Shown: positions 14,972 to 15,056 of the stretch, one piece after another
Numbering within the stretch: the first letter of the stretch is position 1
How the letters are laid out: each line of letters opens with the position of its first letter
Sequence record: OR896157.1
Strand: one strand, 5' to 3'
Length of the DNA: 64,000 bases
DNA from: a phage
Program-made: the position numbers and the translations under genes
Notes under the pieces: model-generated
What the model was told of the DNA's origin: nothing
The model's database searches: none
The model's input: the letters and a program-made list of their open reading frames with translations, nothing else

Positions 14972-15056
14972 TGGAGCTAGGAGTGAGATTCGAACTCACG
15001 AAGGGATACCCGGCGGATTTGCAATCCGCTGCCTTTGGCCACTCAGCAACCCTAGC
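14972..15056 (-). tRNA. tRNA with GCA anticodon (Cys) but long variable arm
   Basis: anticodon arm gcgga-uuGCAaa-uccgc, discriminator U, 13-nt variable arm ggg-uau-ccc, 85 nt. Confidence 0.5.

Follow-up and report, generated by a model that had tools for sequence, protein, structure and literature searches.

A tRNA-Cys gene with a long variable arm in a T4-like Enterobacter phage: architecture, probable cysteine identity and relatives

Introduction

The transfer RNAs (tRNAs) with a long variable arm, termed class II, are restricted in reviews, PMC9976931 among them, to serine, leucine, bacterial tyrosine and selenocysteine (Sec), and the long arm is presented in reviews and textbooks both as the hallmark of these isotypes and as a handle for recognition by the synthetases. 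Can cysteine be read by such a molecule? The question is raised by a gene at positions 14972-15056, on the minus strand, of a 64,000-nt stretch of phage DNA (record OR896157.1), the whole of which we call the window. Its source is a T4-like Enterobacter phage of the PG7/Karamvirus type, whose 7-kb tRNA region is 97% identical to that of Enterobacter phage PG7 and its relatives. A sequence-only reading had seen here a Cys anticodon on a long-variable-arm body, a structurally atypical tRNA if real. In what follows, the gene and its cloverleaf at these positions are confirmed as real, and we consider it probable, from the identity elements found in the sequence, that it encodes a functional class II phage tRNA-Cys, charged by the cysteinyl-tRNA synthetase (CysRS) of the host through U73 and the GCA anticodon. 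We will first examine the fold and its conservation, then the spread of the design and the elements that bear on its amino acid identity, before weighing the alternatives and comparing this tRNA to the systems already known.

The gene and its fold

ARAGORN calls a tRNA-Cys(gca) of 85 nt on the minus strand, with the anticodon at position 35 and with coordinates that match exactly those of the sequence-only reading. A local search with the Rfam tRNA model RF00005, whose gathering score is 29 bits, recovers the gene at 14975-15056 with 48 bits (E = 6e-10), within the range of the other class II tRNAs of the phage (39-58 bits). The alignment spans model positions 1-71 and puts an 11-nt insertion in the variable region and not in the flanks. 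That the extra nucleotides might be flanking sequence, which would have undone the sequence-only reading, is ruled out by this alignment together with an 82-nt, CCA-excluded annotation in the Pet-CM3-4 record. Nor is the gene a normal class I tRNA-Cys, and neither ARAGORN nor Rfam gives a Ser or a Leu assignment.

The tRNA reads GCUAGGG UU GCU GAGUGGCCAAA GGC A GCGGA UUGCAAA UCCGC in its first half and CGGGUAUCCCUUC GUGAG UUCGAAU CUCAC UCCUAGC U CCA in its second half. Seven pairs between GCUAGGG (tRNA nt 1-7, 15050-15056) and UCCUAGC (14976-14982) make the acceptor stem. The D arm (15031-15047), as drawn by ARAGORN, has a 3-bp stem, GCU/GGC, and an 11-nt loop, with G13 and A22 unpaired. The anticodon arm GCGGA UUGCAAA UCCGC (15013-15029) has a 5-bp stem and a 7-nt loop, and its likeness to the Escherichia coli tRNA-Cys arm, noted in the sequence-only reading, is borne out by an identity to cysT at 16 of the 17 positions. 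The anticodon itself, GCA for Cys (15020-15022), which decodes UGC and UGU, is called by ARAGORN and is unchanged in all relatives. The long variable arm C-GGG-UAU-CCC-UUC (15000-15012) has indeed the 13 nt and the hairpin first proposed for it: a 3-bp stem with a 3-nt loop, one unpaired nucleotide on the 5' side and three on the 3' side. The T arm GUGAG UUCGAAU CUCAC (14983-14999), with its 5-bp stem, is found by both ARAGORN and Rfam and is invariant in the lineage, and it is followed by the discriminator U73 (14975), as the sequence-only reading had it, and by an encoded 3' CCA (14972-14974). All the conserved tertiary nucleotides are present, namely those of the D arm (A14, G15, G18G19 and A21) as well as U8, U33, Y48 (as C48), G53, T54-Psi55-C56, A58 and C61.

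By its architecture this tRNA is thus of class II, with a variable region of at least 10 nt folded as a stem-loop, a 3-bp D stem and an enlarged D loop. By its isotype it falls outside the class as the reviews delimit it, with a Cys anticodon and a Cys discriminator.

Conservation in the phage lineage

A comparison with other T4-like phages, which the sequence-only reading had proposed, finds the gene in about 30 Karamvirus genomes, either unchanged or with 97-99% identity, and at 85% identity in Escherichia phage EcS1 (Kagamiyamavirus). More than 25 related Karamvirus phage records in GenBank label it tRNA-Cys, and in the Pet-CM3-4 record it carries no pseudogene flag, although the label "tRNA-Pseudo-GTA" is used there.

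Eight variants of the lineage were aligned to the class II cloverleaf and compared with 500 shuffles and with slid controls. The paired cells amount to 99.5% across the eight variants; the pairing values were matched by 2 of the 500 shuffles, and the slid controls fall to 40-54% paired. Four pairs have changed on both sides, two of them in the anticodon stem (27:43 and 28:42) and the other two among the three of the variable-arm stem, which is AGC/GCU in EcS1 and GGG/CCC in the window. The acceptor pair 7:66 is found as G.U, A-U or G-C among the relatives, and all the stem substitutions between the Karamvirus and EcS1 copies keep or improve the pairing. The sole indel within Karamvirus adds 2 nt to the arm loop in phage RZH, while GCA, U73 and CCA are constant across all the variants. 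This pattern of substitution argues that the 3-bp variable-arm hairpin is a selected helix.

Spread of the long-arm tRNA-Cys

We then looked for the same design beyond this phage with a spacing-specific scan, in which GGATTGCAAATCC is followed by 17-28 nt and then by GTTCGA (the class I spacing being about 11 nt) and in which the discriminator is left free. The scan of IMG/VR gave 97 loci, for which ARAGORN calls a tRNA-Cys(gca) in 91 and a long variable region is found in 90. In species-representative genomes, ARAGORN gave at least 95 tRNA-Cys(gca) calls, overwhelmingly in metagenome-assembled genomes (MAGs) of Phycisphaerae/Planctomycetota, together with three complete chromosomes. Our own cloverleaf parser retained 90 viral and at least 92 genomic long-arm Cys tRNAs, with variable regions of 12-21 nt, and among the matches listed U73 is present in every one of those parsed, viral and genomic. 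The viral set comes down to 66 unique sequences, which fall into 26 clusters at 80% identity, and the genomic set is, among the matches listed, essentially a single cluster. For the commonest uncultured body type, BLAST matched no cultured phage.

The variable arm also covaries in this wider set. A covariance model built from the lineage alignment was used to align the diverse viral sequences, 33 of which share the arm plan. Canonical pairs fill 87 of the 99 arm-stem cells of these 33, whereas permutation gives 41.1 +/- 4.3, and none of 2000 permutations reached the observed count, which is to be read with the caveat that a model-fitted alignment is biased towards its own structure. Each arm-stem position shows four to five pair types in these sequences. 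Column covariation was used here since a test of the best hairpin against shuffles separates 3-bp stems poorly (3.2 versus 2.6 bp).

The long-arm tRNA-Cys(GCA) of Phycisphaerae/Planctomycetota (loci L103-L222, for example 6198-6280 of the genome contig L114, 98-183 of L126 and 990-1074 of L149) is a solitary gene of 81-88 nt with U73, G15 and C48 and without an encoded CCA. Among the matches listed, G2-C71 is present in 75 of 78 of them and C3-G70 in 65 of 78. Because these solitary chromosomal genes carry Cys determinants, such bodies presumably serve as ordinary tRNA-Cys there, and the long-arm form appears, from these genomes, to be the housekeeping tRNA-Cys of the Phycisphaerae.

Two Synechococcus MAGs (L111, 364-450, and L207, 2206-2291) also hold a long-arm tRNA-Cys, with an encoded CCA and within arrays of 8-9 tRNAs. 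These arrays look phage-derived or mobile rather than like core cyanobacterial tRNA genes; in a published survey, the chromosomal tRNA-Cys of cyanobacteria have variable loops of only 3-7 nt.

The long-arm tRNA-Cys is thus a design common in uncultured phages and in one bacterial group. The term "structurally atypical" holds against the textbooks and reviews that restrict class II to Leu, Ser, Tyr and Sec, but not in the sense of rarity in nature, as this is no one-off.

Amino acid identity

U73 and the GCA anticodon are the major determinants of cysteine identity (PMC9976931), and the discriminators of the collected tRNAs tell how far the former goes with the latter. Among the matches listed, U73 is found in 144/144 long-arm and 38/38 class I Cys tRNAs. 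The discriminator is A in all the Tyr (59/59, phage and E. coli) and Leu (105/105) tRNAs, and in the 119 phage tRNA-Ser it is G in 85 (71%), U in 28 and A in 6. For Asn, it is G in 28 of 29 class I tRNAs and in 78 of 80 long-arm ones (among the matches listed). These counts indicate that the discriminator follows the isotype defined by the anticodon across the collected tRNAs, a pattern unlike that of Ser, Tyr or Leu acceptors.

As regards the synthetases that normally charge long-arm tRNAs, the window tRNA-Cys has U73 and C35, not the A73 and U35 (GUA) of tyrosine identity, and U73, not the A73 of leucine identity. The tyrosyl- and leucyl-tRNA synthetases are excluded, because both require A73. 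The seryl-tRNA synthetase (SerRS) is the only serious competitor to CysRS, and its case is weighed below.

Origin of the tRNA body

Descent from a tRNA-Tyr, through GUA to GCA and A73 to U73, was the origin first favoured. Indeed, tRNA-Tyr genes were the only matches of a BLAST search of E. coli with the tRNA-Cys, the closest E. coli D arm is that of tRNA-Tyr (16-17/20), and a remoulding was considered since GUA to GCA is a single substitution. Broader identity and profile tests gave this scenario no backing, and it is no longer favoured over the other. With the anticodon masked, the window tRNA-Cys has identities of 0.75 to Tyr, 0.74 to Ser, 0.73 to Leu and 0.77 to the class I tRNA-Cys of phage CBB. 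Masked profile hidden Markov models (HMMs), which classify isotypes with a held-out accuracy of 0.76, give it 38.0 bits for Ser, 32.2 for Tyr, 26.2 for class I Cys and 19.5 for Leu. As the masked body is nearest to the Ser- and Tyr-type profiles, an isotype-model disagreement flag from tRNAscan-SE would not surprise. The wider long-arm Cys set is split by these profiles among class I Cys, Ser and Tyr types.

Two independent pairs of class I and class II tRNA-Cys, that of CBB with the window and that of Acinetobacter phage Lazarus with an uncultured phage type, are told apart mainly by 7-8 nt inserted in the variable loop. The gain or loss of an arm by a Cys body is thereby no less plausible than the remoulding of a tRNA-Tyr, and the origin may differ between lineages. 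Recent paralogy among the class II tRNAs of the window was also considered and rejected, as their pairwise identities are only 59-71%.

Proposed explanation and alternatives

The tRNA-Cys lies in a tight cluster, Arg(UCU)-Cys(GCA)-Leu(UAA)-Thr(UGU), called by ARAGORN at 14804-15138 on the minus strand with spacers of 1-6 nt. This cluster is co-oriented with the flanking open reading frames (ORFs), sequence scans found no promoter-like or terminator-like sites within it, and it is probably expressed as one precursor transcript. We propose that the four tRNAs would be transcribed together and that the tRNA-Cys would be excised by the host tRNA-processing enzymes, with its CCA already encoded. 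The host CysRS would then charge it with cysteine through U73 and G34-C35-A36, presented in a host-like anticodon arm, and the 7/5 acceptor/T arrangement would suit EF-Tu, so that the tRNA would read UGC and UGU in translation. It is on its minor-groove side that the acceptor stem is bound by class I synthetases (PMC7373986); we infer from this that the arm would project away from CysRS, a class I enzyme approaching the acceptor-stem minor groove away from the variable region, and that the arm is probably tolerated. Such a tRNA would not stand alone in the phage. The window holds 19 tRNAs on the minus strand according to ARAGORN, plus a Tyr(GTA) found by Rfam, and since these cover 18 amino acids, a Cys tRNA fits a near-complete phage set. 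Near-complete phage tRNA sets are thought to sustain phage translation when the host tRNAs are depleted, and the set of the window may do likewise.

Several observations weigh against this explanation. The acceptor determinants G2-C71 and C3-G70 are absent, the window tRNA-Cys having C2-G71 and U3-A70. The E. coli-type core is absent as well, with G15 facing C48 instead of G15:G48 and with G13..A22 instead of A13:A22; G15:G48 is a strong determinant in E. coli, and an enterobacterial CysRS might therefore charge this tRNA poorly. G15:G48 is also missing from the class I tRNA-Cys that the enterobacterial phage CBB carries (G15, C48). Taken alone, the sequence has an unremarkable and uninformative fold energy (z = -1.8), so that the support for the tRNA rests on the covariance model, the tRNA finder and the comparative data. 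The remaining points on this side concern the body of the molecule and are given with the serine alternative. Taken with the identity elements above, these observations leave us with a faithful charging with cysteine by the host CysRS as the likely outcome.

The alternative that survives best extends this explanation rather than replacing it. The tRNA-Cys would be a working one, and its arm would serve to evade a host tRNA-directed nuclease, toxin or modifier of class I tRNA-Cys. Changes of sequence are known to let phage tRNAs evade anticodon nucleases. The recurrence of arm hairpins in many independent phage lineages (26 clusters for Cys, at least 109 sequences for Asn, and also Ile, Trp, Gly and Thr) is in keeping with such a role, as are the selection for pairing in these hairpins and the size of the 7-8-nt insertion that parts class I from class II phage tRNA-Cys, a small change able to alter recognition. 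However, no nuclease or modifier discriminating by the variable region of tRNA-Cys was identified in this analysis, the chromosomal tRNA-Cys of Phycisphaerae has the same arm, so that phage defence need not be involved, and neutral tolerance fits the data equally well. We therefore hold evasion to be a tentative and rather unlikely addition.

A charging with serine, wholly or partly, by a host SerRS that reads the long arm would make of this molecule either an allo-tRNA-like tRNA inserting Ser at Cys codons or a dual Cys/Ser tRNA. The body with anticodon and discriminator masked does score best against the phage tRNA-Ser profiles, and U73 is also that of the phage's own tRNA-Ser(UGA), as it is of 28/119 phage tRNA-Ser. 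C72, A4-U69, C11-G24 and G30-C40, listed as bacterial Ser determinants, are present, and Mukai et al. (PMC5389517) take a long arm with G73 or U73 as the signature of SerRS and infer Ser identity for such tRNAs. The arm itself speaks otherwise: its 3 bp are those of the short Tyr and Leu arms (mean about 3 bp) and not those of phage tRNA-Ser (mean 5.6 bp, at least 4 bp in 97%), and one unpaired nucleotide 5' with three 3' is the commonest Tyr geometry, whereas the Ser type is 1 + 1. The window tRNA has U73 and C2-G71, not G73 and G2-C71, and the uniform U73 of the long-arm Cys tRNAs (144/144 among the matches listed) stands against 71% of G73 in Ser tRNAs. Moreover, its anticodon arm copies that of the host tRNA-Cys, the design appears to be a housekeeping tRNA-Cys in Phycisphaerae, and the replacement of Cys by Ser would harm metal-binding and disulfide proteins. 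The short arm, the non-Ser geometry, the missing G2-C71 and the constant U73 thus lead us to put cysteine well above serine charging, which we regard as very improbable.

That the gene would have no role in translation, being a pseudo-tRNA in decay, or else a decoy or a processing element in the shape of a tRNA, is the least probable of all and hardly to be expected, since the missing secondary Cys determinants and the presence in the same phage of doubtful tRNAs (a Tyr(GTA) that ARAGORN misses and that one record labels as pseudo, a 95-nt tRNA-like element called by ARAGORN only, a tRNA-like remnant 5' of tRNA-Arg) are set against a full complement of conserved tertiary nucleotides, perfect stems that compensatory changes have preserved in two phage genera, where GCA, U73 and CCA do not vary, an Rfam score within the range of the other class II tRNAs of the phage, and an exact Cys identity set that would be superfluous for a decoy.

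The tRNA cluster and its neighbours

The order of the cluster is not the same in all relatives. It is Arg-Cys-Leu-Thr in the window, in the PG7-type phages and in fGh-Ecl01, and Cys-Arg-Leu-Thr in CW742 (locus L348), while in EcS1 (locus L002) the tRNA-Cys is upstream of Arg-Leu-Thr and parted from tRNA-Arg by an annotated ORF of 171 nt. Relative to tRNA-Arg, then, the Cys gene has changed place. A plus-strand ORF at 14880-15209 (109 aa, TTG start), which overlaps these tRNAs and is listed as a hypothetical protein in the record of one relative, was dismissed as spurious. Directly 5' of tRNA-Arg, at about 15139-15225 on the minus strand, is a stretch with a cloverleaf-like fold and a perfect T arm, ACAGG UUCGAGU CCUGU, which neither ARAGORN nor Rfam reports as a tRNA; this may be a tRNA that has degenerated, or else a small stable RNA of the kind found in the T4 tRNA region.

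Other unusual tRNAs and tRNA-like elements are found on the minus strand of the window. At 17977-18071 is the 95-nt element, called a tRNA-Met(CAT) by ARAGORN. Its acceptor-like stem of 7 bp is perfect, its T arm is CCUGG UUCGAAU CCAGG, and a hairpin of 9-10 bp occupies the place of the variable arm; it is without CCA, has no Rfam tRNA match even at E <= 0.5 and is unannotated in the Pet-CM3-4 record. The tRNA-Ser(UGA), at 18200-18293, has U73 and not the bacterial G73. The tRNA-Tyr(GUA), at 20064-20151, has A73, a 15-nt variable arm and an irregular D arm; it is found by Rfam only (20067-20151, 39 bits), is missed by ARAGORN and is the gene named "tRNA-Pseudo-GTA" in the Pet-CM3-4 record.

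The window also contains a class II tRNA-Asn(GUU) of 85 nt, at 19700-19784, whose 15-nt arm is GUCA-GAAA-UGAC-UAG and whose G73 is the Asn discriminator. A spacing-specific scan for such tRNAs found at least 109 long-arm Asn tRNAs in viral contigs, with G73 in 107 of the matches listed. With the anticodon masked, 59 of 80 of these bodies (among the matches listed) are Tyr-like, in a comparison made against Tyr, Leu, Ser and class I Asn profiles only. A long arm may be more surprising on Asn than on Cys, as the class II asparaginyl-tRNA synthetase (AsnRS) approaches from the variable-arm side.

Further long-arm hairpins are found, as bulk calls of ARAGORN with strict stem checks, in phage tRNA-Ile(UAU) (13 sequences, arms of 23-24 nt) and in phage Thr, Trp (all G73), Gly (all U73), Gln, Ala, Lys and other tRNAs; these lie in several of the viral loci L006-L342 (for example L018, L041, L236, L269, L022 and L315). 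Their discriminators fit the anticodon for Ile, Trp, Gly and His and are mixed for Thr, Gln and Ala. Arm hairpins may thus arise in many phage tRNA isotypes, as far as these gene calls tell.

Comparison with known systems

In the searchable literature, in which few subscription journals are included so that an earlier report is possible, we found no description of a class II tRNA-Cys or tRNA-Asn with the canonical 7/5 arrangement, nor of the long-arm tRNA-Cys of Phycisphaerae. What was already known is the GenBank annotation of the gene as tRNA-Cys; what appears to be new is the recognition of its architecture and the breadth of its occurrence. One could go further and see in the faithful class II tRNA-Cys and tRNA-Asn a widespread undescribed group of canonical 7/5 tRNAs, recurrent across phage lineages, serving Phycisphaerae as housekeeping tRNA-Cys and easily arising by the insertion of a 7-8-nt hairpin, whose arm would be kept in phages to alter recognition by host enzymes with recognition by CysRS intact; in this full form, the proposal seems to us doubtful.

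If charging by CysRS is true, the membership of the tRNA classes would be more fluid than stated, CysRS, and probably AsnRS, would tolerate a class II core without the G15:G48 thought important in E. coli, and long-arm Cys and Asn tRNAs would have to be provided for in isotype models and in annotation pipelines. Karamvirus and EcS1 grow on Enterobacter and E. coli, which makes them a tractable system for the function of the arm, and the gene lends itself naturally as a scaffold to tRNA engineering, such as that of arm-tagged or orthogonal Cys tRNAs.

The first term of comparison is the tRNA-Cys of E. coli. With cysT, the window tRNA shares GCA, U73, G1-C72, the anticodon arm with its UUGCAAA loop and A36-A37-A38, and a D stem of 3 bp with two purines opposed at 13:22. 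It differs from it by the variable loop, of 4 nt in cysT (own parser) and of 13 nt with a hairpin in the window, by the D arm (9/20 identical), and by G15:C48, G13..A22 and C2-G71/U3-A70 in place of G15:G48, A13:A22 and G2-C71/C3-G70. The class I tRNA-Cys of Pectobacterium phage CBB, 77% identical to the window tRNA with the anticodon masked, agrees with it in D-arm style, in the anticodon and T arms, in U73 and in CCA; its variable loop is UG|UUC where the window has CG|GGUAUCCC|UUC, which is the 7-8-nt insertion in the window.

The arm plan itself is that of E. coli tRNA-Tyr (tyrT/tyrV), which has the same length (85 nt) and the same succession of C, 3 bp, 3 nt, 3 bp and UUC over 13 nt, a nearly identical D loop, GAG[C/U]GGCCAAAGG (16-17/20 over the D arm), and G15 with C48. 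tRNA-Tyr is set apart by GUA versus GCA, A73 versus U73 and its acceptor and T stems, and the overall identity of about 0.73-0.75 is no better than that to phage Ser (0.74) or Leu (0.73).

The sole long-arm tRNA-Cys described in the reviews searched is selC*, one of which was tested for cysteinylation in vitro and which, with an engineered variant of CysRS, allowed opal suppression in E. coli (Mukai et al. 2017, PMC5389517). The selC* tRNAs are Sec-like: their acceptor/T arrangement is a modified 8/4, in some of them with a bulged A51a, their acceptor and anticodon stems are longer, and they are often linked to selB*/cysS* genes in anaerobic bacteria (PMC5389517). The window tRNA-Cys, unlike them, combines the canonical 7/5 arrangement with an anticodon stem of 5 bp and a D stem of 3 bp, and lies in a phage tRNA cluster; its best Rfam clan member is tRNA and not tRNA-Sec. 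A Sec-like, selC* or allo-tRNA reading is ruled out by these three structural features.

The allo-tRNAs and the nematode nev-tRNAs, finally, share with the window tRNA a long variable arm and an anticodon outside Leu, Ser and Tyr. Both are charged according to their body, with Ser for the former (inferred) and with Leu for the latter (shown); the allo-tRNAs have 8/4 or 9/3 stems and a Sec-like D arm and the nev-tRNAs have Leu determinants, where the window tRNA has 7/5 stems. The prior exceptions to the textbook rule, nev-tRNAs, allo-tRNAs and selC*, are thus mis-decoders or Sec-like oddities. Unlike the allo- and nev-tRNAs, the window tRNA has a discriminator and an anticodon arm that match the amino acid defined by its anticodon, which points to a faithful decoding of the cysteine codons.

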